From the sequence record MT887289.1: a stretch of 64,000 bases of DNA. One strand, given 5' to 3'. Source of the DNA: Escherichia phage SME50. The notes beneath the pieces were generated by a model. It was not told the DNA's origin. It searched no databases and worked only from the letters and a program-made list of their open reading frames with translations. Of the stretch, positions 13,865-27,542 are shown one piece after another (position 1 is the stretch's first letter; each line of letters opens with the position of its first letter). The position numbers and the translations under genes are program-made.

Positions 13865-13880
13865 TAAGTAATTTCTTAAA

Positions 13881-13905
13881 AGGCTGCTTCGGCGGCCTTT
13901 TTTAT
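13881..13905 (+). terminator. rho-independent terminator after rIIB
   Basis: AGGCTGC-TTCG-GCGGCCT hairpin followed by TTTTTT. Confidence 0.6.
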
Positions 13906-13964
13906 TTGTATTTTGTGCAGAGTGCTGTATAATTGTTGTCACGATAAACTAAACAGGAGAACCA

Positions 13965-14513
13965 ATGAAGAAGTTGATTCTAGGTTTGTGCTTAATGTTT
14001 ACAGCACACTTATCTTATGCAGTTGACTGCCCAGAGCTATCAATTAGCCAAAAAGTAAACATGTTAAAAGCTTACCAGTATGGTGAGAATAATATGGGTA
14101 AAGGTTGGGGTATCACTCTAGCTGCTATAGCCTTACAAGAGTCAGAGTTAGGTCTGAAGGTAGAGAATAAAAAGACCCATGACTATGGTATCTTCCAGAA
14201 TCACTTGAAGACTGTTGTAAAGCGTAACAAAATCAGTCCTAATGTGGCTAAAAAGAAACTCTTAAAAGACTTTGACTATGCTGCAAAGGAAACACACAAA
14301 GAGCTTGAGTTTTGGACTAAGGTACATGGTCAACCAAAGTCAAAGAAGACTTTACAAAAAGTTTTAGCGTCATATAATGCTGGGTATTCGTACAAAATCC
14401 CTAAAGCTAAGAAATACTCTCAAGATGTTTACAACAATATGAAAGTCATCGCTCAATGTGAATTTGCAACAAACATTTCTAAGGTAAACCATGAAAAAAT
14501 TAAGAAAGTCTGA
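13965..14513 (+). CDS. secreted lytic transglycosylase-like (SLT domain) protein
   Basis: N-terminal signal peptide (MKKLILGLCLMFTAHLSYA); motifs AIALQESELG, DYGIFQNH, YNAGYSY. Confidence 0.5.
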   Translation: MKKLILGLCLMFTAHLSYAVDCPELSISQKVNMLKAYQYGENNMGKGWGITLAAIALQESELGLKVENKKTHDYGIFQNHLKTVVKRNKISPNVAKKKLLKDFDYAAKETHKELEFWTKVHGQPKSKKTLQKVLASYNAGYSYKIPKAKKYSQDVYNNMKVIAQCEFATNISKVNHEKIKKV

Positions 14514-15186
14514 TGAAGTCCTGTGCCATGCTTACGACTTGCACCCTCATGAGTTAGGTCTTGATTCCTGTGTATGGACTCCAGAACAGTGCAGAGATTT
14601 TGAAGATACTGCAAGAGAAGTTGTATGTTCACTTGAAGAGTTCCACACATCAGAACCAATTGTGAGCGTTGTGGACAAAGAGACTGGACAATCTATAGGT
14701 GTAAGACGTGACAGTTTAGTCATAGTCAATAAAGACCTTGTAGAAAAAGGTAACCTAATCTTAGCAGATATTGATGGTGTTCTTACAAATTTTAATCACG
14801 AAGATTGCTCAACGGAATTGACTGATGGGTCATTCTCACAGTACACTAATCTTCTTGACTCTGTAAGAGCAAAACCAACGTATGTTTTCAGTATCATTGA
14901 TGCAATTGCTAATCATGCTGCCATTGGACTCTTGACAGCAAGAGGTGAATCTCAGAGAATACCTACTGAGATGTTTTTAAGGCATAACATAGAGCATGAT
15001 TACATGCTTTTTATGCGTGGTTTTGGAACTAACTCTATAAGTGCAGAAAGTTTAAAAGTTAGGATGATTCAGTCTTGCATTCTTCCTTACTTTAATATAG
15101 TATGCTTTATAGAAGATACAGAGAAGAATGTTCAGAAGGTAAACAGAATCCTTCCACACATTAAAACCATGTTAGTAAAACATTGA
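14491..15186 (+). CDS. HAD-superfamily hydrolase-like protein
   Basis: Motif LILADIDGVLTN resembles HAD motif I (DxDGxL). Confidence 0.4.
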   Translation: MKKLRKSDEVLCHAYDLHPHELGLDSCVWTPEQCRDFEDTAREVVCSLEEFHTSEPIVSVVDKETGQSIGVRRDSLVIVNKDLVEKGNLILADIDGVLTNFNHEDCSTELTDGSFSQYTNLLDSVRAKPTYVFSIIDAIANHAAIGLLTARGESQRIPTEMFLRHNIEHDYMLFMRGFGTNSISAESLKVRMIQSCILPYFNIVCFIEDTEKNVQKVNRILPHIKTMLVKH

Positions 15187-15196
15187 GAGAAAACTT

Positions 15197-15661
15197 ATGA
15201 ACAATATCATTACGGTAGCACTGGACGTTACGGCAAACAAATCTGAAGTGGTTCGTAACATTATCAAAAGCAACTTTGAGGGTAAAATCTTTCGTGCTGT
15301 CAATGTAAAAGCAGACGGTAACATCCGAGAGTATCGTGCTCTTCTAAATGTTAAGAAACACGTCAAAGGTGCTGGTTCAACGACTGCACACAAAGAAAAC
15401 CTGATGACTATCTATGATATGGGTATGGCTTCAGAGTTAGGTGCTGAAGGTATCGTTAAAGAAGGTGCTCCGTATCGCTCTTTCAATCTGGAAACTGCTC
15501 TTATGCTTTCCTTTACAAGTGGTTCTAAAACAACTACTTATCTCTTTACTGATGCTGCAACGGTATCTGCTATCAAGGATAGCACCGTCAAAGCTGGGGT
15601 AGCTGCTGCTGCAAAAGCTTCTTCGATGGCTGCAAATGTCCTTGCTAAAGTCCTCGGTTAA
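15197..15661 (+). CDS. hypothetical protein
   Basis: 154-aa ORF with Ala-rich C-terminus. Confidence 0.5.
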   Translation: MNNIITVALDVTANKSEVVRNIIKSNFEGKIFRAVNVKADGNIREYRALLNVKKHVKGAGSTTAHKENLMTIYDMGMASELGAEGIVKEGAPYRSFNLETALMLSFTSGSKTTTYLFTDAATVSAIKDSTVKAGVAAAAKASSMAANVLAKVLG

Positions 15662-15673
15662 GGTTAAGATACA

Positions 15674-15695
15674 GGCTCCTTCGGGAGCCTTTTTC
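15674..15695 (+). terminator. rho-independent terminator
   Basis: GGCTCC-TTCG-GGAGCC hairpin followed by TTTTT. Confidence 0.6.
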
Positions 15696-15713
15696 ATTTC
15701 AGGAGATTGTTAA

Positions 15714-16061
15714 ATGACATTTAAAGAGTTCTGTCAAGCTACTTTCATAATTGTTTTCTTAGTTGGAGCAGGTGTCTGGGGAGGATACTCTTACAGAGAC
15801 TACCAAGTTGCTGAGACTGAGCTAAATAATGAGAAACTAATAAGTGTTGCTAAAGATGCTTATCAGGAAGGTTTAGCCACACTCAGCACCAATTACAAAA
15901 ATGATTTGAAAGATGTGCTTGCTAAGAATAAGCATACAAAAGAGGTACTAACATATGAAAAAACTAAGCCAGAGTTTTATAATGTTTGTGTTACTGATAA
16001 TTATGTCAGGGTGTTCAACGAACAAAGTGAACAGTACATTCAAAAACTCCCAAGTAAGTGA
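15714..16061 (+). CDS. candidate i-spanin (Rz-like)
   Basis: N-terminal TM segment followed by a charged helical region; its 3' end is overlapped by a lipoprotein ORF in another frame. Confidence 0.5.
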   Translation: MTFKEFCQATFIIVFLVGAGVWGGYSYRDYQVAETELNNEKLISVAKDAYQEGLATLSTNYKNDLKDVLAKNKHTKEVLTYEKTKPEFYNVCVTDNYVRVFNEQSEQYIQKLPSK

Positions 16062-16224
16062 GAGTGACAAGTACACTCAAGAAGAGTCAAGATTCACTGT
16101 CAAAGGTAATACTGGTAGTGATGTGGCAGCAGCCCTTGAGTTTTATCGTGACGGTTTTTACCAGTGCACAATCAAAGCTAATAACCTTATTGATATGATT
16201 TTATTAGGAAACAAACAGCAATGA
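15955..16224 (+). CDS. candidate o-spanin (Rz1-like outer-membrane lipoprotein)
   Basis: Signal peptide with lipobox (IIMSGC); overlaps the 3' end of the putative i-spanin, the classic overlapped spanin layout. Confidence 0.5.
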   Translation: MKKLSQSFIMFVLLIIMSGCSTNKVNSTFKNSQVSESDKYTQEESRFTVKGNTGSDVAAALEFYRDGFYQCTIKANNLIDMILLGNKQQ

Positions 16225-16490
16225 CAGAGAATGAAGACACTTTCTATGTAGAAGGGTACTTACTGCTACCACGACCAAAAGAAACTTATATGCGGGTTGA
16301 TTTCTCACCAACCATTATGGATAACGTGATGTGCCATATCTTTATGCAAGGTGTCACAGCACAGCTTAAGCATGTTGGTAAAGAGTGCAAAATAAAGGTT
16401 GACACTCATCCAGAAATCAAAGAGAATCACTACACATGGTTCTTACCAGACTCTAAAGAAATCTTAGCAGTTCTTAAAACGAGGAAATGA
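16221..16490 (+). CDS. hypothetical protein
   Basis: 89-aa ORF, overlapping stop/start. Confidence 0.45.
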   Translation: MTENEDTFYVEGYLLLPRPKETYMRVDFSPTIMDNVMCHIFMQGVTAQLKHVGKECKIKVDTHPEIKENHYTWFLPDSKEILAVLKTRK

Positions 16491-16801
16491 TTATGCAATT
16501 CCAGCCAACAAATCGTGGATTTTCTTATGCAGAATTTAAAGATGCTAAAGGAGAGATTTGTACTTTACAAGAAAGTTCATCATATGAACCATGTATCTGG
16601 TTAGGTGCTAAAGAGGTCTCTGTTCAGTACCTAGATGGTGGCTGGAAAACACTTGATATCCCAGCATTAGTAGGCAAAGATTTTGTAGGTAACCAAAGAA
16701 TGAAACTCAACCAAGAACAGGTGAAAGAGTTATTGCCATACCTTCAGTACTTTGCTGAAAATGGTGAATTACCAACAGAGGAACTTACAAATGCAGATTA
16801 A
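16487..16801 (+). CDS. hypothetical protein
   Basis: 104-aa ORF. Confidence 0.45.
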   Translation: MIMQFQPTNRGFSYAEFKDAKGEICTLQESSSYEPCIWLGAKEVSVQYLDGGWKTLDIPALVGKDFVGNQRMKLNQEQVKELLPYLQYFAENGELPTEELTNAD

Positions 16802-17117
16802 TGGAAGAGACTTTGTAGCTGTTTACTATGAGAAAGATAAAGAAGTTGGCGTAGCACAAGTATCTTATGGTAATGGTAAGTGGTTGTATGGAACAATCGC
16901 AGTAGTCGGAACAAGGAGTGATACAAAAACTTTTAAAGATTGTGTTGACCTTCTTGAAGAATCCATCCACAATCATTGGTGTCTGATATGGATGACTGAC
17001 AACGAAGTGATAGAACGCTTCAAAAAGATTGGTATCAACATTGATAGCATTGAGCATGTTGATTTGTATGAGCTAACTGAGAAGGTAAACTATGAAAGTA
17101 ATACTAGCCAGAGATAA
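16791..17117 (+). CDS. hypothetical protein
   Basis: Internal ATG (MQINGRDF) of track ORF 16752-17117 gives the usual short overlap with the upstream gene. Confidence 0.4.
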   Translation: MQINGRDFVAVYYEKDKEVGVAQVSYGNGKWLYGTIAVVGTRSDTKTFKDCVDLLEESIHNHWCLIWMTDNEVIERFKKIGINIDSIEHVDLYELTEKVNYESNTSQR

Positions 17118-17325
17118 AAAGACACGTAAGATTGTAAGTTCAGCAGTATTCAAAGGGAGACATGAAGTCGTCCCGTTTGCAGGAGAAGATGTGTTAACTT
17201 ACAAGAAGGTGATGAAACGTGAGTTCAGTAACCATTTCCGTGACTTCTTCTCTGAACCATTAGAAGATTTTAAAAGTCGTTGTGGTAAAGGTATCATCAC
17301 TCAAGAGGTAATTATTCATGGCTGA
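17092..17325 (+). CDS. hypothetical protein
   Basis: 77-aa ORF. Confidence 0.4.
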   Translation: MKVILARDKKTRKIVSSAVFKGRHEVVPFAGEDVLTYKKVMKREFSNHFRDFFSEPLEDFKSRCGKGIITQEVIIHG

Positions 17326-17518
17326 CTTCTGCAAAGACTGCTCTATCGAAATGTTCGGACGTGATACAGGTGACTTAAAAGGTCTTATCACTGAAGACGA
17401 CTTTAAAGCTGGCTATGCAATGCCAGTAATCTGTGAAGGTTGTGGATGTATCTGGGTAGACCATGAAGGGCAACGTGTAAAACCTTCAGAAGATAAAGAA
17501 TCTTGGGAGAGATGCTAA
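17318..17518 (+). CDS. small Cys-rich (zinc-binding?) protein
   Basis: 66-aa ORF with CKDC...CEGCGC. Confidence 0.4.
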   Translation: MADFCKDCSIEMFGRDTGDLKGLITEDDFKAGYAMPVICEGCGCIWVDHEGQRVKPSEDKESWERC

Positions 17519-18304
17519 ATGGGTATTGTAAAAATTATCAATGGGGATATCTTCTCAGCATTTGATAAAGGTAAGTTTGATATCATTGGTCACGGTTGCA
17601 ACTGTATGAACTTAATGGGTGCAGGTATCGCTGACAAGATTTCTAAACTTTACCCAAAAGCATATGAGACTGATACAGAAGTTTATCTGTATGCAGGAGG
17701 TATAGGTCACAAACCCTGTGAAAATTTACTAGGCAACTTCTCTGTAGCACGTTTAAAACAAGGACGTATAGCTAACCTTTACACTCAGCTTAAGACTGGT
17801 AAAGATGCCCGATACAGTGCTTTAGAGTCATCTTTGAAACAGCTTAACAGATACTGTGAAGTCAATCAGTTGAAGAAAGTTGGGTTACCTATGATTGGTG
17901 CAGGTATCGGTGGACTAGACCCTCAAGCCGTCACAGTTATCATTAATCAGGTGATGAAGAGTGTAGATGTGTATCTGTATGTCTACGAAGGAGAGATGTA
18001 CCACAAGTTACGCTCAGGTTGGAAGAACTACTGTGAACCAGAATACTTTGCAGGTGTAGTAGTGTTCACTGATGATGCAGTTACCCTCTTCAGACGAAGA
18101 AAAGGTAAGATACATCAAAGTAACCCTCCGGTTGAAAAGATGTCTCTAAGTAACGCTCTAGTTACCCACCTGTCGAAGAGCAATCACAGAATTGCAGTAA
18201 CATTTGGCAGTGATGCAGATACATATATCTATGCAAGAACTGATGAGGATGTTGAGGAAATTTTCTCTTCACCGGAAGTAACCTTCTTAGACGCAAAGAA
18301 CTAA
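17519..18304 (+). CDS. macro-domain-like protein (ADP-ribose binding/processing) with C-terminal extension
   Basis: N-terminal IINGDIFSAF...DIIGHGCNCMNLMGAGIA and later GLPMIGAGIGG resemble macro-domain Gly-rich loops. Confidence 0.5.
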   Translation: MGIVKIINGDIFSAFDKGKFDIIGHGCNCMNLMGAGIADKISKLYPKAYETDTEVYLYAGGIGHKPCENLLGNFSVARLKQGRIANLYTQLKTGKDARYSALESSLKQLNRYCEVNQLKKVGLPMIGAGIGGLDPQAVTVIINQVMKSVDVYLYVYEGEMYHKLRSGWKNYCEPEYFAGVVVFTDDAVTLFRRRKGKIHQSNPPVEKMSLSNALVTHLSKSNHRIAVTFGSDADTYIYARTDEDVEEIFSSPEVTFLDAKN

Positions 18305-18375
18305 GAAACTCTGTAGAATATTCACAATAGGTTAAGCCTTTCTTATCTGGTAAATTTTTCAGGTAAGGAGGGCTT

Positions 18376-18571
18376 TTTCATTTCAGGATTGTGCAGGTAG
18401 AGTTCTGGACAGAAATCTGTAGAGAAAATTTTGAACTCCAAAGAGAAAATTCATTTTCAAACTGTGCAGGTAATCTCCAAAGAGCTTTTTCATTTTCAAA
18501 ACGTGCAGACCCCGCTCAGGTCGGGCAAGAAAAATCATTTTAGAATTGTGCAGGTAGGTGGGTGCAGGTGG
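18376..18571. repeat. four direct repeats of about 22 bp (TTCATTTTCAAAnnGTGCAGGT) in an intergenic region
   Basis: Copies near 18376, 18449, 18488, 18535, followed by GTGGGTGCAGGTGGGG. Confidence 0.6.
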
Positions 18572-18743
18572 GGATGTCGCCATTTCTCACAAGGCTACCA
18601 CATCTGAAAAGAAAAGTCAACAGAAAAATTTGTAGCGGATTGAAAAATAATTCTTGATTGTAGTTCTGTTTTGTGGTAGTCGCGTGCGCCCGTTTCATTA
18701 CAGTTTTTGCAAAAATATTTTTAAAATTCCTATTGACTCTTTG

Positions 18744-18772
18744 AATATGGTTATCTAATATTTGCATCAGAC
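18744..18772 (+). promoter_or_regulatory. sigma70-like promoter for the small-gene cluster
   Basis: TTGACT - 17 nt - TAATAT. Confidence 0.5.
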
Positions 18773-18811
18773 GGGCAATCAAGCCCACTTCCTAAACTGG
18801 AGAATCAAAAA

Positions 18812-19018
18812 ATGCTTTACAGTCGTGAATTGATGGTTACAACTAACGTTAACACAAAGGTAAAACGTTTTTATATGCAAGTGTGCGGCGCATGGCGTAG
18901 AATATCAGAAGCTGATTATTGCAACTATGTAGAAACGGCAATCAATTCTAATTGCTACCTTACGAAGAATACAAAGCGACATATAAAACAGACAGCGGTT
19001 TACTATTACGATATATAA
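18812..19018 (+). CDS. small hypothetical protein (small-gene cluster)
   Basis: 68-aa ORF preceded by GGAGAATCAAAAAATG leader. Confidence 0.5.
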   Translation: MLYSRELMVTTNVNTKVKRFYMQVCGAWRRISEADYCNYVETAINSNCYLTKNTKRHIKQTAVYYYDI

Positions 19019-19025
19019 AAAGTAC

Positions 19026-19054
19026 TTTACAGGGGGCTTAAAAGCTGATATCTT
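19026..19054 (+). promoter_or_regulatory. promoter cassette, type 1 (TTTACA - 17-nt GC-palindromic spacer - TATCTT)
   Basis: Conserved AGTACTTTACAGGGGGCTTA...TAAGCCCC element followed by leader CCTTAAACTAGGAGATTCAAAAATG. Confidence 0.45.
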
Positions 19055-19108
19055 AAGCCCCAGATAAAGAGCTTTACTTAATTAACCCTTAAACTAGGAG
19101 ATTCAAAA

Positions 19109-19489
19109 ATGGCTTATCGTGCACCTAAATTCATCAACAAAGACAACTTTCGCAACGCACTGGAGAAGTCACTTGATGAAAATTTTAAAGGTAACATTAT
19201 CGTTGTTCACGCATTCAATTTTAAGTATGATGTAAACGGGAATAGAATCAACCATTACACAGCAACCATGTTAGATGGTACGCTATCAAGTGAAAAAGCT
19301 GTACTGAATGCACTTGCAGGACGTGGTAAAAACCTGATAAGATGCGATAAGAGACGTTATCAGGGTGGCGCATATGGTTATGATGATGCTGTTTATCATC
19401 TTGAAAATATGGGCTATTCAGTGGAAAAAGCTGGAGTGTCTCAAATAATCGGCAGTGACGGCTATGTGACAATTTTCAAAATTAACTAA
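19109..19489 (+). CDS. small hypothetical protein (small-gene cluster)
   Basis: 126-aa ORF behind conserved leader. Confidence 0.55.
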   Translation: MAYRAPKFINKDNFRNALEKSLDENFKGNIIVVHAFNFKYDVNGNRINHYTATMLDGTLSSEKAVLNALAGRGKNLIRCDKRRYQGGAYGYDDAVYHLENMGYSVEKAGVSQIIGSDGYVTIFKIN

Positions 19490-19497
19490 TAAAGTAC

Positions 19498-19526
19498 TTT
19501 ACAGGGGGCTTATAGTTCGATAAAGT
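19498..19526 (+). promoter_or_regulatory. promoter cassette, type 1 (TTTACA - 17 - TAAAGT)
   Basis: Same conserved hairpin-containing cassette. Confidence 0.45.
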
Positions 19527-19580
19527 AAGCCCCAGATAAAGAGCTTTACTTAATTAACCCTTAAACTAGGAGATTCAAAA

Positions 19581-19871
19581 ATGGCTATTATTAAAAACGT
19601 TGTAATTCCTGCAAAAACTCGTGATGACGCTCGCATCATGGCGAAAAAGTTAGGCGGGAAAGTGGTTGACAACGGAAAACAAACTGCTGTAAGGTGGAAC
19701 GTGAAGGCGGATAAACAAATGAATTTAAAAAATTCACCAATAAACCTTTTTACATGTGTAAACACTATCGGGAAAACGAATGTATACACTAAAAAGGCAT
19801 ATATCAGACGCATCGCCATGACGTCACCTATTCGCACAATGAGAAGTCATGCAAAGCTGAAAATTAAGTAA
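19581..19871 (+). CDS. small hypothetical protein (small-gene cluster)
   Basis: 96-aa ORF behind conserved leader. Confidence 0.55.
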   Translation: MAIIKNVVIPAKTRDDARIMAKKLGGKVVDNGKQTAVRWNVKADKQMNLKNSPINLFTCVNTIGKTNVYTKKAYIRRIAMTSPIRTMRSHAKLKIK

Positions 19872-19879
19872 TAGAGTAC

Positions 19880-19908
19880 TTTACAGGGGGCTTAAAAGCT
19901 GATATCTT
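19880..19908 (+). promoter_or_regulatory. promoter cassette, type 1 (TTTACA - 17 - TATCTT)
   Basis: Same conserved cassette. Confidence 0.45.
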
Positions 19909-19961
19909 AAGCCCCAGATAAAGAGCTTTACCACTCAATCCTTAAACTAGGAGATTCAAAA

Positions 19962-20474
19962 ATGAAAACTGTAGACGCTACCTTTGAAGTTGTAAAAGAA
20001 AAATTTTCCATCATTTACGAAGCTGTCAATTGCTACGAAGCAAGCCATAATCTTGATAATTGGAAGTTTACAGATGACCATCAAGGCGGTGTGACTATTA
20101 AAAACCCCAACTGTCAGCGTAATGGATTTAAATATGCAATTCCTTTACATTACAGCCTTAAACAGCTTTCAATTGACTATGCAAAACAAGGCCGGGAAAA
20201 TCCATCGAAAGAGGCTTACATCAGCTTACAGAAAGAACTAGAAAGAGATTTAGAGGCTTCAGAATATAACATCGCCGCGAAAGTTGTAGATGCAAACGGT
20301 AGCACGGTTTTAGAGAGTTTTTATATTGGTTATGCTTTCGATTGGTGCTACAGTGACGGCGATGATTTAGATGACAGACTAAAAGAGGAAGTGAACAACG
20401 CAGACGCAGAATCTGAAGTATTAGAACGCTTGGAAGCATTAAAAGATTCAGTGATGAATATCTTTAAGAACTAA
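19962..20474 (+). CDS. small hypothetical protein (small-gene cluster)
   Basis: 170-aa ORF behind conserved leader. Confidence 0.55.
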   Translation: MKTVDATFEVVKEKFSIIYEAVNCYEASHNLDNWKFTDDHQGGVTIKNPNCQRNGFKYAIPLHYSLKQLSIDYAKQGRENPSKEAYISLQKELERDLEASEYNIAAKVVDANGSTVLESFYIGYAFDWCYSDGDDLDDRLKEEVNNADAESEVLERLEALKDSVMNIFKN

Positions 20475-20483
20475 ATAGACCTC

Positions 20484-20512
20484 TTTACACGGGGCTAACA
20501 AGCGGATATGAT
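20484..20512 (+). promoter_or_regulatory. promoter cassette, type 1 variant (TTTACA - 17 - TATGAT)
   Basis: CTCTTTACACGGGGCTAACAAGCGGATATGATAGCCCC then conserved leader. Confidence 0.45.
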
Positions 20513-20565
20513 AGCCCCAGATAAAGAGATTTATCAAATTAACCCTTAAACTAGGAGATTCAAAA

Positions 20566-20862
20566 ATGAAACTATCAAATAAAGTCCGTGAAAATCTAAG
20601 CAAGTTGCTTAATAAAATTGATTTCATTGAAACATCAAGGAATAGCCATGATGTTATGGAATGGTTACACGGAAAAATCAAAGGCCGTCGTGTAGTGATT
20701 TGCTTATGGAATAGTTGCAGGGAATATAAAAAACCTGTATTACAAGTCAATATCTATGATGATACTTTTAAAAGCCCTGTAAAGTCTAAAAGCGATTTAT
20801 TAGAATCTTATGAGATAACTGTAAATGGCAAGGTATCACGTAAAGAGGAAGCACCATGTTAA
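20566..20862 (+). CDS. small hypothetical protein (small-gene cluster)
   Basis: 98-aa ORF behind conserved leader. Confidence 0.55.
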   Translation: MKLSNKVRENLSKLLNKIDFIETSRNSHDVMEWLHGKIKGRRVVICLWNSCREYKKPVLQVNIYDDTFKSPVKSKSDLLESYEITVNGKVSRKEEAPC

Positions 20863-21188
20863 TGATGGGTATCACTGCAATCATTGCCATTATAGCACTT
20901 TACAAGGCTTATAGCGCATATAATTTGGCAAGTAAGGCAATCACGCAGCAGGTCAATAATAACCTTGTAATGAGCTTTCTGGAGCGTTTAAGCGATGAAC
21001 AAATAAAACGGTTAGAAATGAGCTTCAGATTTCAATCAAAAACTTATCAAATCAGCGACATTTTCAAAGATGATTTTCAGCTCGTCGATGATTATAACTC
21101 TCTGATAAATGCTTTAAATATCAGTGATTTAAAAGATTATCATGCTGTAATAGTTCAAGAATTGAGCAAACGAAAACAAAATTCTTGA
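20856..21188 (+). CDS. small membrane protein (small-gene cluster)
   Basis: 110-aa ORF with N-terminal TM segment; overlaps the upstream stop. Confidence 0.5.
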   Translation: MLMMGITAIIAIIALYKAYSAYNLASKAITQQVNNNLVMSFLERLSDEQIKRLEMSFRFQSKTYQISDIFKDDFQLVDDYNSLINALNISDLKDYHAVIVQELSKRKQNS

Positions 21189-21213
21189 CACTGATTTTTA
21201 GATAGATTAAATT
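21185..21213 (+). promoter_or_regulatory. promoter cassette, type 2 (TTGACA - 17 - TAAATT) with conserved hairpin leader
   Basis: TTGACACTGATTTTTAGATAGATTAAATT, then leader ATCAACGGGGAGGGATTAACCTTCCC...CCTTAAACTAGGAGATTCGAAAATG. Confidence 0.55.
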
Positions 21214-21277
21214 ACTCATCAACGGGGAGGGATTAACCTTCCCACTAAGTAAAGTCCTTAAACTAGGAGATTCGAAA

Positions 21278-21436
21278 ATGATTCAAATAGGTGATAAAGT
21301 TGTCTGGAACGATATAGACAATGATTTATGCACAAAAATTGTAATTGTCTTAGAGCTTGATTATATAATTGGTGTTGCAACTGTTGCAGATAATGATATA
21401 ATCTTTGATGTTTTAATCAGTGAGCTATCGAAATAA
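21278..21436 (+). CDS. small hypothetical protein (52 aa; below track cutoff)
   Basis: ATG directly after the conserved leader; open frame to TAA at 21434-21436. Confidence 0.4.
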   Translation: MIQIGDKVVWNDIDNDLCTKIVIVLELDYIIGVATVADNDIIFDVLISELSK

Positions 21437-21459
21437 GCCTTAAACTAGGAGATTCGAAA

Positions 21460-21732
21460 ATGTATACTACTAACAACGGTCGCACTTTGAACGTAACCCT
21501 GCGCCACTATGTGAACGGTGTAATGCACTTCGAGGATTTACAAGCCGAACAACATATCTTGGATTGGCAAGTAGCAGGACTCCAAAAAACTGCTACAGGA
21601 TACGGGAAAAAGATTCCAACTAGTTGGAAAGTATACTACGAAGGGCGTTTGCGCAGAATTTATCAAGATGTATACAGTAATAGCGCATCAAGTTACATCA
21701 TAGTAAAAGGTAAAAAGCTGCATTTAGTATAA
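21460..21732 (+). CDS. small hypothetical protein (small-gene cluster)
   Basis: 90-aa ORF preceded by leader GCCTTAAACTAGGAGATTCGAAAATG. Confidence 0.55.
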   Translation: MYTTNNGRTLNVTLRHYVNGVMHFEDLQAEQHILDWQVAGLQKTATGYGKKIPTSWKVYYEGRLRRIYQDVYSNSASSYIIVKGKKLHLV

Positions 21733-21737
21733 AGTAC

Positions 21738-21766
21738 TTTACAAGGGGCTTATAGTTCGATAAAGT
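21738..21766 (+). promoter_or_regulatory. promoter cassette, type 1 (TTTACA - 17 - TAAAGT)
   Basis: Same conserved cassette. Confidence 0.45.
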
Positions 21767-21817
21767 AAGCCCCAGATAAAGAGCTTTAACACTCAATCCT
21801 AAATTGGAGATTCTAAA

Positions 21818-22222
21818 ATGGCTATTAATAATCGTGAGTTATCAATCTTAAAAGCACGTTTGACCGTTAATCGGATTAATGTTATTACATCATCAGCACC
21901 GGATGAGACATTGCACAACATTATCGGGAAGATTCAAAGTGTTATCTTAGACGTTGAAAACGTAAAAAACTCACTGGCTGACGTTGCAGCAGGTATCACG
22001 CTAGACGGTGCGCAATATGAAATGGCTGACATGTTAGGCAAATCTAAGGTAATGAATAAAGAGTTAGACTTGAAAATGTTTAGATTTGCTGTTAAAGTGT
22101 GGCTATCTGTCGAGTATGACGCAAATTTTGCAATCGCTGACTTTTTCGCAACATGGTTGCAACGTAATTTAACAAATCATGATTTCCGTGATGTCTGTGA
22201 TGCAATTTATGCGGAACTCTAA
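21818..22222 (+). CDS. small hypothetical protein (small-gene cluster)
   Basis: 134-aa ORF. Confidence 0.55.
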   Translation: MAINNRELSILKARLTVNRINVITSSAPDETLHNIIGKIQSVILDVENVKNSLADVAAGITLDGAQYEMADMLGKSKVMNKELDLKMFRFAVKVWLSVEYDANFAIADFFATWLQRNLTNHDFRDVCDAIYAEL

Positions 22223-22235
22223 AAAAAAAAAACTG

Positions 22236-22264
22236 TTGACACTGATTTTTAGATATATTAAATT
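22236..22264 (+). promoter_or_regulatory. promoter cassette, type 2 (TTGACA - 17 - TAAATT)
   Basis: TTGACACTGATTTTTAGATATATTAAATT plus hairpin leader. Confidence 0.55.
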
Positions 22265-22329
22265 ACGCATTAACGGGGAGGGAATGAACTTCCCCACTAA
22301 GTAAAGTCCTTAAACTAGGAGATTCTAAA

Positions 22330-22533
22330 ATGGCTATTATTAACGGCTTAACCATTGAAACAACACACATCAAAGACATTAAAGTTGGTGATGTAGTCCT
22401 TTCCCACGGCGTAGAGAAAACTGTTACTGCAAAGGATATTAAAGAGGATTCTTTCATGGGTAGGACTCTCTTCGGTGATTCTTATTGCTTGGGTTATCTT
22501 GCAGTTTTAAAAGTTGTCAAAAATAACCGTTAA
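22330..22533 (+). CDS. small hypothetical protein (small-gene cluster)
   Basis: 67-aa ORF behind conserved leader. Confidence 0.5.
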   Translation: MAIINGLTIETTHIKDIKVGDVVLSHGVEKTVTAKDIKEDSFMGRTLFGDSYCLGYLAVLKVVKNNR

Positions 22534-22538
22534 AGTAC

Positions 22539-22567
22539 TTTACAAGGGGCTTATAGTTCGATAAAGT
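22539..22567 (+). promoter_or_regulatory. promoter cassette, type 1 (TTTACA - 17 - TAAAGT)
   Basis: Same conserved cassette. Confidence 0.45.
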
Positions 22568-22625
22568 AAGCCCCAGATAAAGAGCTTTACCACTCAATCA
22601 AGTCCTTAAACTAGGAGATTCAAAA

Positions 22626-23189
22626 ATGAAATGCTATCACGGCACTACTCTGAAAAACTTTGTAAACCTGCTGAATGGTGGCGACAAGCCTGAAGGAATC
22701 TGGAACTGCTCCTACATGGATGATTGTTTCTACGTTTACCCAATGAACAAGGTTATCAAAACGGAATGTCTGGAAGATGAGGAAGATTCTTATATCCGTG
22801 AACGCTGCATTCAAAGCGCCTTAGAGTCTGGACTTATTACGGCAGCTTTCCAAATGGAAACGCAGGAAGTGATTGTTATCGAAATGGATATCCCAGAGGA
22901 AGAACTTGAGGACGATTATTCTTGTGACAACATGAGCGAAATTGCCAGCTTTACCGGATACTTTGATAAGAATTGGATTATCGGTATACACTCGACGAAA
23001 TTTAGTGCGATGTATGCGCCTTTCTTTGTACCGGATACAACTAACCGTAATTTAGGATATATTGACGATGATTTGTTAAGTATGGCGAAAATTGTACAGA
23101 ATAGCGGTGATAGTTCCGTGTTTTGTGACCTACTTGATAAAATCACGGCAAACATCACAGAACGCAATTTAAAAGACTTTTTAGGTTAA
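22626..23189 (+). CDS. hypothetical acidic protein (small-gene cluster)
   Basis: 187-aa ORF behind conserved leader. Confidence 0.55.
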   Translation: MKCYHGTTLKNFVNLLNGGDKPEGIWNCSYMDDCFYVYPMNKVIKTECLEDEEDSYIRERCIQSALESGLITAAFQMETQEVIVIEMDIPEEELEDDYSCDNMSEIASFTGYFDKNWIIGIHSTKFSAMYAPFFVPDTTNRNLGYIDDDLLSMAKIVQNSGDSSVFCDLLDKITANITERNLKDFLG

Positions 23190-23252
23190 TCAGTACAAAG
23201 ACACCAACTTCCAACTTAAGGCCCGTACAGGGCCATTTAGAGGGCTTCAATC

Positions 23253-23486
23253 ATGCTTACAACCATTTACCTCATCCTTTCCATTTGTAATGGTCATTCA
23301 TGCGATTTTAAAGGGCTTGAGGAGTTTACAGGGAGTAAAGAAAATGTTATTCATACCTGTCAGATAGCAAGGCAAGACTATCCCGCCAGTGATGATATAC
23401 AATGTTACTTTAAGACAGAAGATAATGACGGCGTTTATTTTGATAGCGTAGACGGTCAATATGAAATTATCATTGAAAAAGACTAG
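23253..23486 (+). CDS. small hypothetical protein
   Basis: 77-aa ORF; preceded by hairpin GGCCCGTACAGGGCC rather than the conserved leader. Confidence 0.45.
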   Translation: MLTTIYLILSICNGHSCDFKGLEEFTGSKENVIHTCQIARQDYPASDDIQCYFKTEDNDGVYFDSVDGQYEIIIEKD

Positions 23487-23512
23487 ACAAGCCTGATAAA
23501 AGTCTGTAAATT
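23484..23512 (+). promoter_or_regulatory. promoter cassette, type 2 (TAGACA - 17 - TAAATT)
   Basis: Followed by the ATCAACGGGGAGG... hairpin leader. Confidence 0.5.
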
Positions 23513-23576
23513 GTCAATCAACGGGGAGGTAATAACCTCCCTACTAAACAAAATCCTTAAACTAGGAGATTCGAAA

Positions 23577-23918
23577 ATGGCTTATGTAACCGTAATTACC
23601 AATAAAGAAGATTCATCTTGGTCAACTCAAGTAAGTGACAAGATGTCACCTATGCAGTGCCTAAAATACTTTGAGCAATGGAACAAAGGTGAGGAAACAA
23701 GCCCCTTTCAAGTAATGCAGATTATCCATACAGACAACGAAGGGAATAAAACTGTTTTGAATAGTGAGTACTATGCAACCAGATTCGAAACGAGAAGTAA
23801 AGCAATGAAACTCTTACGTGAATCCGGTTATTCTCATATTGCCGCGCTAATCTGGGATGACCTCCTAAAAAGTCAGCGTATCAGTTATGTAAAACCTGAA
23901 AAAATATTCATCAGTTAA
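23577..23918 (+). CDS. small hypothetical protein (small-gene cluster)
   Basis: Start reassigned to the ATG (MAYVTVITNK) directly after the conserved leader; track ORF starts at 23511 inside the leader. Confidence 0.5.
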   Translation: MAYVTVITNKEDSSWSTQVSDKMSPMQCLKYFEQWNKGEETSPFQVMQIIHTDNEGNKTVLNSEYYATRFETRSKAMKLLRESGYSHIAALIWDDLLKSQRISYVKPEKIFIS

Positions 23919-24047
23919 TCAACAACTTACAAAAAACTTTTAAAAAAGTGTTGACAATGCCCCTTGACATTGGTAACTTTGTTCGAGGGGGTTTATCTAA
24001 AAGGGATTAACTTAAAAGATTCTTTATAGATAAACTTAAAAAATTGC

Positions 24048-24076
24048 TTGCAATCAGATATCAAAACAAGTAAATT
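24048..24076 (+). promoter_or_regulatory. promoter cassette, type 2 (TTGCAA - 17 - TAAATT)
   Basis: Followed by hairpin leader. Confidence 0.5.
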
Positions 24077-24138
24077 ACTAATCAACGGGAGGGATAACCT
24101 CCCCACTAAGTAAAGTCCTTAAACTAGGAGATTCAAAA

Positions 24139-24669
24139 ATGAACAAATTTCAAGCTATCAATTACATCCGCTCAAATAGTGTTATGTCAAAGCCTGTTAA
24201 AGACACCTATGAATTTCGTTGCAATGGTGTACACTTTGCAACCATCACCAAATCAGAAAACGGGGCTTATTACGTTCATCGCCGTAATGTTGCAACCGTT
24301 GTAGTCTCTCACTTTATGCAAGCTGTCGCGGAACTTCTCCCGATGTTTTTAGGGCTTTACTTAGATGAGTGTAAGCACATTCATAACCATGTTAAAAGCC
24401 TTTTAAACGGTTATAAAATGGCTTATGAGCGTTCTATCAAGTCCTTAAACAAGTTTTACAACGCACCTGAAAACACCGTATCAATGGCATACGCTGTAAA
24501 GGGTGAGGCGGTGAGTCTCTTCGAAGTGGAAGAAATCGAGCTTTATGACCATCGCCCCAATGGTTACGCTAAAACTCTCGGTGAAGGTTTAACGTTCAAT
24601 ATCAAGAACTTAGAAAAAACTTTAAAAGATATTGAAAAAGATATTGACGAGACAATCAAAAGTCTGTAA
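24139..24669 (+). CDS. hypothetical protein (small-gene cluster)
   Basis: 176-aa ORF behind conserved leader. Confidence 0.55.
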   Translation: MNKFQAINYIRSNSVMSKPVKDTYEFRCNGVHFATITKSENGAYYVHRRNVATVVVSHFMQAVAELLPMFLGLYLDECKHIHNHVKSLLNGYKMAYERSIKSLNKFYNAPENTVSMAYAVKGEAVSLFEVEEIELYDHRPNGYAKTLGEGLTFNIKNLEKTLKDIEKDIDETIKSL

Positions 24670-24672
24670 ATT
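24644..24672 (+). promoter_or_regulatory. promoter cassette, type 2 (TTGACG - 17 - TAAATT)
   Basis: Lies within the 3' end of the upstream ORF; followed by hairpin leader. Confidence 0.5.
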
Positions 24673-24735
24673 GTCAATCAACGGGGAGGGAATGACCTTC
24701 CCCACTAAGTAAAGTCCTAAACTGGAGTTATCAAG

Positions 24736-24999
24736 ATGGAAAACGTCGAACTGACCACACTTTTACAAATTGCAACCGACAAAGAGGATGTAGCATTATT
24801 CCACCGTATCGAAAGTGATTTGTTCAATGGTGAAATCATTAAAGAATCTTACGAAGTGGTCGGATTCAAAGATGGTAAATCATTTGGATTCTTTGACCTC
24901 GACAAAGGCAACGCTATTACAGAGTATGATGTTTTATCTTGTGAGATTCTGACAAAATACAACGAAAAAAGACTTGCAACATACGCCAACATGCAGTAA
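24736..24999 (+). CDS. small hypothetical protein (small-gene cluster)
   Basis: 87-aa ORF; leader variant CTAAACTGGAGTTATCAAGATG. Confidence 0.5.
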   Translation: MENVELTTLLQIATDKEDVALFHRIESDLFNGEIIKESYEVVGFKDGKSFGFFDLDKGNAITEYDVLSCEILTKYNEKRLATYANMQ

Positions 25000-25002
25000 A
25001 TT
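24974..25002 (+). promoter_or_regulatory. promoter cassette, type 2 (TTGCAA - 17 - TAAATT)
   Basis: Followed by hairpin leader. Confidence 0.5.
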
Positions 25003-25067
25003 ACTAATCAACGGGGAGGGAATGACCTTCCCCACTAAGTAAAGTCCTTAAACTAGGAGATTCTAAA

Positions 25068-25316
25068 ATGGCAACTATCCGCGCAATTGTAAATTCTTAT
25101 GGCTGCTACACTCTGGACGTTAAATTTGATATAGGTGGGACCGATGAGTGTTTCGAACTGGTGAAAACAGTCATTAAACAAGTTATCCCAGACTATAACC
25201 CTACTGATGACTTCTGGAAAGATGCAGTAAAAGAGGCATTGAACGATGAATATCATTACCATTATTGGGGTGATTTGATTGTCTCCCTGTACTACAATAA
25301 ACAAGGTTGCAACTAA
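25068..25316 (+). CDS. small hypothetical protein (last of small-gene cluster)
   Basis: 82-aa ORF behind conserved leader; chosen over the antisense ORF 25053-25325. Confidence 0.5.
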   Translation: MATIRAIVNSYGCYTLDVKFDIGGTDECFELVKTVIKQVIPDYNPTDDFWKDAVKEALNDEYHYHYWGDLIVSLYYNKQGCN

Positions 25317-25353
25317 TCGGCGCAACGGGGCAAATAGCCCCAGATACCTTTAT

Positions 25354-25377
25354 AGCCCCTTAAATGGGGCTTTTTTA
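25354..25377 (+). terminator. rho-independent terminator closing the small-gene cluster
   Basis: AGCCCC-TTAAAT-GGGGCT hairpin followed by TTTTTT. Confidence 0.6.
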
Positions 25378-25399
25378 CGTCTTATCAAATCCTATACAA

Positions 25400-26900
25400 T
25401 CCTTTTCCTTTCCTTTCCAGAGTCTTACTAGACCTTAAAAGCAATAACTCTATAGCTTACTCTATAACCTTTTATCAAATCAACTTAAATATAAGCCCAT
25501 AACCCGAAAGGGAAGGGCAACCGTTTAAACGCTCTATAAAGCTCTATAACAGCCTTATCAACCTAACTTAAGGGATTGCATTAACTCACCCTAAAAAGCC
25601 CTTTATAAAGCTTCCTAGAGGCTTAAAAGAATCTTATAAGGGTGTAAGCTTTATCATCTCGTTAGTTCCTTGTGAATATCTAGAAAGGGCTTGTTAGTGT
25701 CTTAAAAGTATGTTATAGGGGCTATAAAGTAGATTAAAAGTTACTTCAAAGTTACGTAAATGCTAGCCCCCTTAACATTTTCTTAACAATTTCTTAACAA
25801 ATCCTACATAGTTATGCTTTTAAGGTACTTGTTAGCAACTTGTTAGCCCCTTGTTAAATCTCTGTTAATACCTCGTAAAAGCCTTGTAAGAGTCTTTGGC
25901 ATAGCCTTTAAAGCCTCTGTAAAGCCCTATAAAGAGCTTTCTACATAGTTGGGGTGTAATTACTAGGAAGAGACTAAAAAGAGCTTATAAGGAGCTATAA
26001 AGGGCTTTTAAGAGGGCTATTTAAAGAATCACTAAGAGAGAAAGGGAATGATAAGAAAAGAGATAGTGACCATGTTAACAGCTTGTTAAAAAGGTTAAAC
26101 ACTTGTTAGGAACTTGTTAATTATCTTAACAAAATAACTCTTTAAAATTAACTTGTTAGCTCTTGTTAGTCATCTGTTAAGCCTCTGTAAAGACTATGTA
26201 TCAACTGTTAAGAAACTGTTAAGCTCTTGTTAGTTCTGTTAAGAATCTGTTAAGACCTCTGAAGAGATGTTAAGAGGATGTAAGAACTGTTAAGAGATTG
26301 TTAATGATATTTTAAAATTCTGCAAAGGGGATGTTACAGGGATGTTAAGGGCTACCAAGCAGATATACATCCTAGACAGATATTTTTCAGTTCCTTCAAA
26401 GACCCTAAAAAATGACTTGATAGTCCTATTTTATAAAAATTTTAAAATTCTGAATAATTACCTAGACAGTCTTCTAAAAATACAGGCATAAACAGGTTTA
26501 TAAGATACCTTGTTAGTACCGTGTTAGACCTTGTGAGATAAGGTCTGTAAAGATATTCCTGTTAAGTTTGTTAAAACAGTCTATATAGAGGCTTAGTAAT
26601 ACCTAGTGAACACCTATAGAGGGTAACATAGCTGACATAGAGATTAAGAGGTGTATAGGGGCTTCTAAGAGGGTGTAGAGAGATGGTTAAGGTGATTGTA
26701 TAGGTTGTTAAGAAGGATTGTTAGAGGGCTATTTAGAAGGGCTATACAGAGGGGCTATTAAGACCACTAGATAGATACTAAGATACTATATAGTACTATA
26801 TAACTATATATATAGAGAGTAAGCTTAAGAAGGTTGTTAAGAAGGTTAGATATTTTATTCACATATGATGGTGACCCAGAGGTTGGGACAACCGATAAAA
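25400..26900. repeat. ORF-free repeat-dense region (about 28 copies of YTGTTAR plus CTnTAAAG and GGGCTAT motif families, AT-rich tract near 26760-26815)
   Basis: No ORF of 60 aa or more on either strand over about 1.6 kb; bounded by convergent terminators. Confidence 0.7.
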
Positions 26901-26912
26901 TTTTATAAAAAT

Positions 26913-26938
26913 TAAAAAGCCCCCAATTAAGGAGGCTC
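26913..26938 (-). terminator. rho-independent terminator for the minus-strand gene block
   Basis: Minus-strand hairpin AGCCTCC-TTAATT-GGGGGCT followed by TTTTT. Confidence 0.5.
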
Positions 26939-26948
26939 TTAAGATATT

Positions 26949-27542
26949 TTAAACCAGTGTTTCCAGAACTGTCTTCAGTGATGACTTGGTTGTCTGATAA
27001 AAATGAGTAAATCCATTGTTGTTATCGAATACCTGCATCATGATATCATCTCCCTTGATTGGGTACACTCGGATATCATAGTGGAACCCGTTAAAGACAG
27101 CAGAACCATTACAGAATGAACTAAAGTCATCCACTGAGATGTACTCTTCGTGACCTGTGATTTTTATACAGACACCTTTGCTCGGTCTCTTAGGGTTAAT
27201 ATCTTCCATCACAGACATATTCTGTCCACCAAGAGATACCATAGTGACCACTTTACGGTTCTTCTGTTTAAAGTACATCTTAACTTTCTGTAAAGTATCT
27301 TCATAGAACGGATAAGACTTCTCTACAAAGATTCCTTCAAGTGGCTCTTTACCATTTCTAACTTCTCTGATATGACGTACTGAGAAGATAAGTTGCTCTA
27401 GTATGTCAAGGCTTTCTTTGGAGAGTGCTTCCCGAACATCAGCCCAGTCAAGGACTAGGTAGTTGCCTTCAACTTCTTTCAAGTTATCTTTTTCCATAGC
27501 TATCACACCATTATTGTAAAACTTGGTAATCCGGTACTGCAA
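26949..27542 (-). CDS. hypothetical protein
   Basis: 197-aa ORF, last gene of the minus-strand block. Confidence 0.5.
   Translation of the reverse strand: MQYRITKFYNNGVIAMEKDNLKEVEGNYLVLDWADVREALSKESLDILEQLIFSVRHIREVRNGKEPLEGIFVEKSYPFYEDTLQKVKMYFKQKNRKVVTMVSLGGQNMSVMEDINPKRPSKGVCIKITGHEEYISVDDFSSFCNGSAVFNGFHYDIRVYPIKGDDIMMQVFDNNNGFTHFYQTTKSSLKTVLETLV

Follow-up and report, generated by a model that had tools for sequence, protein, structure and literature searches.

The window, by which we mean the whole 64,000-nucleotide stretch of Escherichia phage SME50 (MT887289.1) that was analysed, belongs to a Felixounavirus genome, that is, to a Felix O1-like myovirus of the subfamily Ounavirinae. 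A 507-bp non-coding gap (18305–18811) lies between the macro-domain gene, which closes a long DNA-metabolism/rII/macro operon, and the first of about 16 small plus-strand genes forming the terminal early-gene cluster. This gap holds an array of four direct repeats, designated U1 to U4. From left to right it consists of a terminator, U1, a 46-bp gap, U2–U4, a hypervariable tract, an A/T-rich block, a possible weak promoter (P1) and a strong promoter (P2), with ~100–180 bp between the end of the array and the promoters of the early cluster (Table 1). The 2-kb stretch around the array was 99.6% identical to Escherichia phage vB_EcoM_Shy and was matched by 247 phage records, nearly all of which were from Felixounavirus.

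Table 1. Features in and around the repeat array (window coordinates; identity and invariance are for alignment columns)
Feature	Position	Strand	Basis or remarks
Macro-domain ‘phosphatase’ gene	17519–18304		Upstream of the gap; Pfam Macro
Intrinsic terminator hairpin of the macro-domain operon	18334–18375	+	17-pair stem, then T-run
Repeat copy U1, GCTTTTTCATTTCAGGATTGTGCAGGT	18372–18398	+	34.7 bits; 95% mean column identity, 70% invariant columns, 23 genomes
Conserved 5′ flank of U2, ACTCCAAAGA	18435–18444	+	98% identity, 80–90% invariant
Repeat copy U2, GAAAATTCATTTTCAAACTGTGCAGGT	18445–18471	+	35.0 bits; exact match to the 22-mer; 97% identity, 67% invariant
Repeat copy U3, GCTTTTTCATTTTCAAAACGTGCAGAC	18484–18510	+	36.7 bits; 94% identity, 59% invariant
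Repeat copy U4, GAAAAATCATTTTAGAATTGTGCAGGT	18529–18555	+	31.6 bits; 96% identity, 74% invariant
Hypervariable tract after U4 (55 bp), with extra GTGCAGGTGG	18556–18610	+	69% identity, 16% invariant
A/T-rich conserved block, AAAAGTCAACAGAAAAATTTGTAGCGGATTGAAAAATAATTCTTGATT	18611–18660	+	95% identity, 80% invariant
Possible weak rightward promoter P1, TTGATT-17-TAGTCG, then GC-rich discriminator	18654–18682	+	Sequence and alignment
Strong early promoter P2, TTGACT-17-TAATAT	18709–18761	+	Promoter scan; invariant upstream A/T tract AAAAATATTTTTAAAA
Possible solitary fifth copy, CCTTTTTTATTTGTATTTTGTGCAGAG	13896–13933 (motif 13896–13922)	+	Directly after the rIIB terminator

The initial annotation had described four direct repeats of a roughly 22-bp motif in this intergenic region. 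All four were found at that place and on the same strand, and the repeating unit proved to be longer, at 27 nt. The 22-mer matched at 18450 with no mismatch, at 18489 with two and at 18534 with three, and nowhere else in the 64 kb; 100 dinucleotide-preserving shuffles contained a mean of 0.02 matches and none of them (0/100) reached three. The copy at 18376–18399 was more diverged and kept the core register TCATTT-N7-GTGCA exactly. The full unit can be written as G-W5-TCATTT-N7-GTGCA(G), in which W5 is a tract of either A5 or T5, and ACTCCAAAGAG often stands just 5′ of it. In all 39 units compared from four genera the core had a single length (TCATTT, 7 nt, GTGCA), preceded by an invariant-leaning G and then the A5 or T5 tract, and the units are asymmetric with no dyad. 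The start-to-start spacings of U1–U4 in this phage are 73, 39 and 45 bp.

A 27-nt weight matrix was scored on both strands of the window, of shuffled windows and of the HMD-P8 and Erwinia phage M7 genomes. This genome-wide scan, which had been proposed with the first description of the motif, returned the array as the sole strong locus (in round numbers, 31–37 bits against ≤15 bits elsewhere). The four copies scored 31.6–36.7 bits. Outside the array, the best site reached 15.2 bits in the 64-kb window, the same value in the complete genome of HMD-P8 (89 kb) and 8.6 bits in that of M7, and the top score in 50 shuffled windows was 16.3 bits.

The terminator hairpin preceding the array had a folding energy of −24.6 kcal/mol (z = −7.5), relatives carry compensatory changes in it, and its U-tract doubles as the T5 tract of U1. 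Folding of the alignment on both strands supported this hairpin alone. A GC-rich palindrome that had been reported at the end of the array (~18510–18528) was not borne out, as this segment folded no better than shuffled sequence (z = −0.58) and had 76% identity with 11% invariant columns. The conserved ACTCCAAAGA block found 5′ of U2 also occurs 5′ of U3 (18475–18483), and in Mooglevirus 5′ of U4 as well. Between U1 and U2, phages of E. coli, Salmonella and Citrobacter carry ~36 bp (18399–18444 here, with equivalents in loci L022 and L036) that Erwinia phages do not have. This insert contains one or two TCTGNNCAGA-type palindromes, including a perfect TCTGTACAGA in BPS17L1, and genome-wide the TCTGNNCAGA palindrome was observed six times against 0.8 expected, mostly inside genes.

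The tract after U4 occurs as unrelated alleles, two in the alignment (compared here and at the equivalent position of loci L016, L020, L022 and L034). In every allele one strand has many G-runs: the plus strand in this phage (GGTAGGTGGGTGCAGGTGGGG), and the minus strand in most relatives, where a C-rich allele carries four runs of at least four G. Judged by its sequence, the tract could form a G-quadruplex or an R-loop. The ‘tandem’ GTGCAGGTGG/GTGCAGGT of the initial annotation is present here, with its second copy at 18562–18571, but that copy belongs to the allele-specific hypervariable tract and in most relatives is replaced by unrelated C-rich sequence. Several metagenome contigs and the partial GenBank genome LMP34 break exactly at this tract. 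A GenBank record ending just past U4 was dismissed as evidence for a genome end, since it is a partial genome.

Downstream of the tract, blocks of 20–30% GC at 18610–18669 and 18690–18769, 55–200 bp from the array, coincide with UP-like elements of promoters. A degenerate unit-like stretch at 18602–18635 was assigned to repeat family D1 as a 62% copy. On the minus strand, TTGACT (18620–18615) could be the −35 element of a weak leftward promoter. P1 scored under the 9/12 threshold of the promoter scan and its assignment is an inference, whereas P2 heads the small-gene cluster, and a promoter before gene 11 was also predicted in the Felix O1 genome paper (PMC3185647).

The array was compared among relatives. 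In total, 288 phage records matched the gap, and in 28 of these, from Erwinia phages (Kolesnikvirus), essentially the repeat core alone aligned. The motif was present in all relatives examined, and at all Ounavirinae loci examined, which represent four genera, the array was syntenic and in the same orientation. Of 39 distinct arrays, 25 had four copies and 13 had three, with a few non-Ounavirinae coding repeats included in the count; four is the usual number at Ounavirinae loci, and BPS17L1 is an example of the minority with three. Erwinia phage M7 carries four copies in the syntenic position, and its units end in GTGCATAG, compared with GTGCAGGT here. Spacings compared between genera were 73/39/45, 75/41/45 and 37/37/39 bp, the last being those of M7.

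In an alignment of 23 distinct genomes, unit columns were 94–97% identical and 59–74% invariant. As a benchmark for selection we used the macro gene, in which the second codon position was 94% identical and 69% invariant and the third 82% and 20%, respectively. The U3–U4 spacer and the post-U4 tract had 69–76% identity with 11–16% invariant columns. The array is thus under strong purifying selection as DNA, on a par with second codon positions, and it is a locus unique in the genome whose position, orientation and, at most loci, copy number are conserved in four genera. Compared with M7, proteins flanking the array in this phage show 28–56% identity, and the most conserved protein of the whole genome reaches 82%; given the conservation of the units, the DNA element is therefore selected at least as strongly as most proteins.

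The conservation does not reflect a coding repeat. Hypothetical proteins are annotated across the array at 18391–18543 (plus strand), 18383–18583 and 18540–18788 (both minus strand) in GenBank records such as those of Shy, SB18 and BPS17L1, and the minus-strand calls carry a spurious internal peptide repeat, LHxxKMxxLF, that arises from the repeat units. The reading frame is lost between genera, and spacings of 41, 37 and 73–77 bp together with alignment indels break every frame. Since the spacing differences between genera are not multiples of three, these ORFs cannot be conserved genes, and from the sequence they are probably, indeed very probably, false gene calls. Neither is the array borrowed from the host: 5,426 E. 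coli genomes contained no copy of it, and a two-unit pattern searched in 185,579 species genomes gave six chance-level matches, none of them in Enterobacterales. Pattern scans of viral and metagenome contigs returned Ounavirinae-sized contigs and unrelated coding repeats, and no other lineage. Two similar 50-bp repeats upstream of a promoter in contig L162 were judged to be a chance resemblance.

The region downstream of the array is rich in repeats of other kinds. At 19019–25067, nearly every small gene is preceded by a near-identical ~90-bp cassette (for example at 19019–19108, 19490–19580, 19872–19961, 21733–21817 and 22534–22625), which consists of the −35 element CTTTACA and a GGGGCTT...AAGCCCC hairpin spanning the promoter, after which come AGATAAAGAGCTTTAC and CCTTAAACTAGGAGATTCAAAAATG, the latter being the ribosome-binding region. 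These cassettes alternate with those of a second family, which has TTGACACTGATTTTTAGATA... and a GGGGAGGGAATGACCTTCCCC hairpin, and the cassettes account for the repeats of 57 and 39 bp described in Felix O1. In combining a promoter with a hairpin they are similar to the mobile promoter cassettes called PeSL in T4-type phages. The array units differ from these cassettes in having no hairpin, no CTTTACA −35 and no −10 element, and no genes come after them.

Further downstream, the 581-bp direct terminal repeat determined with PhageTerm in Felixounavirus Pr103Blw (PMC8303462) maps to ~25766–26356 of the window. This lies 7.4–8.0 kb downstream of the array, and a role of the array as genome terminus or pac site was rejected on that ground. 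The mapped terminal repeat is surrounded by a 1.6-kb non-coding region (25320–26950) with dozens of short direct repeats (CTTGTTAG, CTGTTAAG, CTATAAAG, CTGTAAAG), which are probably packaging or terminus-processing signals; the end of the M7 record has a similar style of repeats (TCTTCTAAG, TGTTAAG).

A possible solitary fifth copy was found directly after the rIIB terminator, where it overlaps the −35 element and spacer of a promoter with a consensus −10 TATAAT (13928–13933) and a TG just before it. In this copy, TTATTT coincides with the −35 region, and GTGCAG falls roughly between −25 and −20. Its score in this phage, 15.2 bits, is within the shuffle maximum of 16.3 bits and is not significant taken alone; the equivalent position in Mooglevirus scored 21.5–24.4 bits, and GTGCAG is retained among relatives while adjacent bases vary. 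The copy was not found in Erwinia M7. The operon that follows 13880–13940 encodes a putative transglycosylase, a polynucleotide kinase, spanins and the macro-domain gene. As the motif-like copy lies at the promoter of that operon, the operon that ends at the array would also begin with a copy of the motif, and thus all motif instances, the candidate fifth copy included, appear to lie at terminator–motif–promoter junctions.

Several explanations of the array were weighed. It is improbable that the repeats act in RNA, either on read-through from the macro operon or on an antisense transcript from the possible weak leftward promoter (18620–18592), as repeated single-stranded sites for an RNA-binding protein or an RNase. 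All copies have one orientation, the minus-strand −35-like TTGACT does not vary and every genus has a TA at the corresponding −10 position, a leftward TTGACG-18-TATACT is readable in the equivalent region of M7, and the conservation is of primary sequence and not of structure, as expected for single-stranded binding motifs. On the other hand, with a strong conserved terminator immediately before U1 little sense transcript is expected, most lineages have a poor leftward −10 (TAAGAG or TAATAG), and the fixed geometry of two half-sites with an A/T tract is more typical of recognition of duplex DNA. A structured RNA was rejected, as a search of the array region against Rfam gave no match at E ≤ 1 and neither strand had a conserved fold beyond the terminator. 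We gave the least credence of all to the units being tandem sigma-70 promoters or decayed, functionless copies of the early-cluster promoter cassettes. Their A/T tracts are UP-element-like, a −35-like TTCAAA lies in the register of the TTGAAA −35 of the solitary copy in Mooglevirus, and the U3 flank shares the 10-mer AAAGAGCTTT with the 5′ UTR of five early-gene cassettes. However, the promoter scan found no sigma-70 site inside 18376–18571, and a −10 hexamer at a workable distance (16–18 bp) was present in none of the 39 units and in no genus, on which basis tandem sigma-70 promoters were discarded, while neutral remnants would not match second-codon-position conservation in four genera with diverging spacers. 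With regard to the three possibilities raised in the initial annotation (iterons, regulator binding sites or promoter elements), a protein-binding cis repeat in general stood, and promoter elements, read as tandem promoters, did not. A further reading, suggested by analogy and in our view very improbable, is that the array is a DNA-entry boundary like the injection stop signal (iss) of phage T5, at the inner edge of the segment that enters and is expressed first. With as little likelihood, the terminal ~8 kb of self-promoted small genes would then precede the remaining DNA in entry and expression, entry would pause at the array, and two-step genome injection would extend beyond T5-like phages. 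We know of no report of two-step transfer in Felix O1-like phages. The position of the array relative to the Pr103Blw terminal repeat is ~9% from the right end, the M7 array lies 7.86 kb from a record end that was judged homologous by reading both end sequences, and the small genes between array and terminus form an autonomous cluster in which every gene has a promoter of its own. The T5 iss (Repeat Region 3, left terminal repeat), at 7.5–8.3% of the genome, is likewise a non-coding, repeat-rich region that directly follows a terminator and lies at the inner boundary of a terminal early block ~8–9% from the end, and it has families of four to five direct repeats of 23–25 nt spaced by 23–81 bp, one of which has TGTGCA. 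It is also more conserved among relatives than nearby ORFs (Davison, preprint 10.1101/866236), a trait that the array shares. The likeness is positional and architectural only: the T5 region extends over ~1.2 kb within a terminal repeat of 10 kb, contains a nick and paired DnaA boxes besides numerous repeat families and palindromes, and depends on A1 and A2, whereas here there is one 180-bp array with no DnaA boxes in its units, the terminal repeat is ~0.6 kb long and 7 kb away, and homologues of T5 A1 and A2 gave no tblastn match with E below 0.1. In the injection-stop region of T5 (locus L039, 9436–9974), (T/G)GTGC(A/G)AATCCGAC occurs at least six times and ATTCCGCTTTTTAAATGAGAATC five times, a superficial likeness to the array unit, in a T-tract and TGTGCA, for which no homology is claimed.

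That the four repeats are iterons of a replication origin is unlikely as well, and carries more weight than the foregoing. They would bind an initiator, either phage-encoded or, in some lineages, host DnaA, and the adjacent A/T-rich blocks and strong promoters would provide unwinding and transcriptional activation for a T7-like primase-helicase/polymerase replisome. The array is a unique cluster of four same-orientation repeats of 22–27 bp, and comparable same-orientation clusters exist in lambda ori and T4 oriE. It adjoins A/T-rich DNA and promoters and is conserved as sequence, like the iterons of phage and plasmid origins such as lambda ori (four 19-bp repeats), T4 oriE/RepEB, P1, F and pSC101, with which it shares a cluster of about four non-coding repeats of ~20–27 bp. 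The replisome is indeed T7-like (Toprim and DnaB_C), the A/T-rich stretches and the G-runs after U4 could favour unwinding and an R-loop, respectively, and the searchable literature describes no origin for the Felix O1-like group. In Erwinia M7 each of the four units has a DnaA box with one mismatch (six found against 1.2 expected); these DnaA-like boxes are confined to the array lineage of Erwinia phages, and three mismatches separate the units in phages of E. coli, Salmonella and Citrobacter from a DnaA box. Unlike known iterons, the array has no adjacent or overlapping initiator gene, as scans of the flanking ORFs revealed neither a Rep or O domain nor a DnaA-like one and the replication module is 35–40 kb away, and its irregular spacing of 37–77 bp does not follow one or two helical turns (multiples of ~11 or 22 bp). 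GC skew gave no signal at the array and is uninformative because the skew follows the direction of transcription. A candidate fifth copy on an unrelated promoter would not be expected for an origin, and this copy and the lack of a nearby initiator gene lead us to lean towards regulation over iterons, two readings that computation alone cannot separate.

The explanation that we tentatively prefer, with somewhat less than even confidence, is that the array is a set of binding sites for a sequence-specific DNA-binding factor that acts on transcription at the operon junction; the sequence comparisons strongly support the more general notion of a functional protein-binding repeat that acts in cis. 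Each of the same-orientation sites would present two fixed half-sites, TCATTT and GTGCA, 7 bp apart, with a G and an A5/T5 tract on the 5′ side. Occupation of all four sites could build a nucleoprotein complex controlling transcription at the junction, which may shield the early cluster against read-through from upstream, modulate the neighbouring early promoters, or both. At the candidate fifth copy, a bound protein would act directly on RNA polymerase, given its position on the −35 element and spacer. Several points count against simple operators or against this reading in general: the sites are asymmetric and separated from the early promoters by 100–350 bp, features not usual in simple operators, the 37–45 bp spacing is not strictly helical-phase, and the array cannot control the whole early cluster because every downstream small gene has its own promoter.

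As to the binding factor, phages of Escherichia, Salmonella, Citrobacter and Erwinia share one and the same core although their proteins are 28–82% identical, and the partner would therefore probably be very conserved. A host protein or RNA polymerase is at least as likely a binder as a phage protein. A Pfam scan found no DNA-binding domain in the 20 flanking ORFs (13966–25316), and a phage-encoded binder was set aside when the 29 ORFs scanned against Pfam contained none; PHROGs named no function for the ten ORFs nearest the array, and a ranking of protein conservation between Felixounavirus and Kolesnikvirus gave no obvious small, highly conserved candidate. The only evident helix-turn-helix protein of the genome, an HTH_3 regulator, is missing from the array-bearing Erwinia phages and was rejected as the binder for not being co-distributed with the array; for the same reason, and because the units are asymmetric, a repressor/Cro-type operator was rejected. 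The insert between U1 and U2 could instead be the operator of this HTH_3 (Cro/C1-type) protein, because the two have the same distribution, Erwinia phages being without both. Among host proteins, IHF, CRP, marbox and Fis sites were not found in the units by simple consensus scans.

With several A/T-tract sites upstream of strong sigma-70 promoters, the array resembles rrn P1 (Fis sites and UP element) and the phi29 p4 system (A-tract sites between early and late promoters). By hand alignment to the UP-element consensus, U2 and U4 match at 11 of its 14 specified positions, the same as rrnB P1 UP. The array differs from Fis and p4 arrays in that its units are off the Fis consensus, asymmetric and 100–350 bp away, and contain the GC-containing half-site GTGCA.

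The Felix O1 genome paper lists perfect repeats of at least 24 bp, and the array is not among them (PMC3185647). The searchable literature contains no transcript or binding data for this phage group and no description of its origins, transcription start sites or the array motif. The array thus appears not to have been described previously in that literature, although the kind of element, a binding-site or iteron-like array, is familiar.

Felix O1-like phages are widely used in Salmonella and E. coli typing, biocontrol and therapy. In their genomes, the array is the most conserved non-coding element that we found, and its ~180 bp may offer a compact handle for identifying the factor that controls the early junction or, should the repeats be iterons, the origin.
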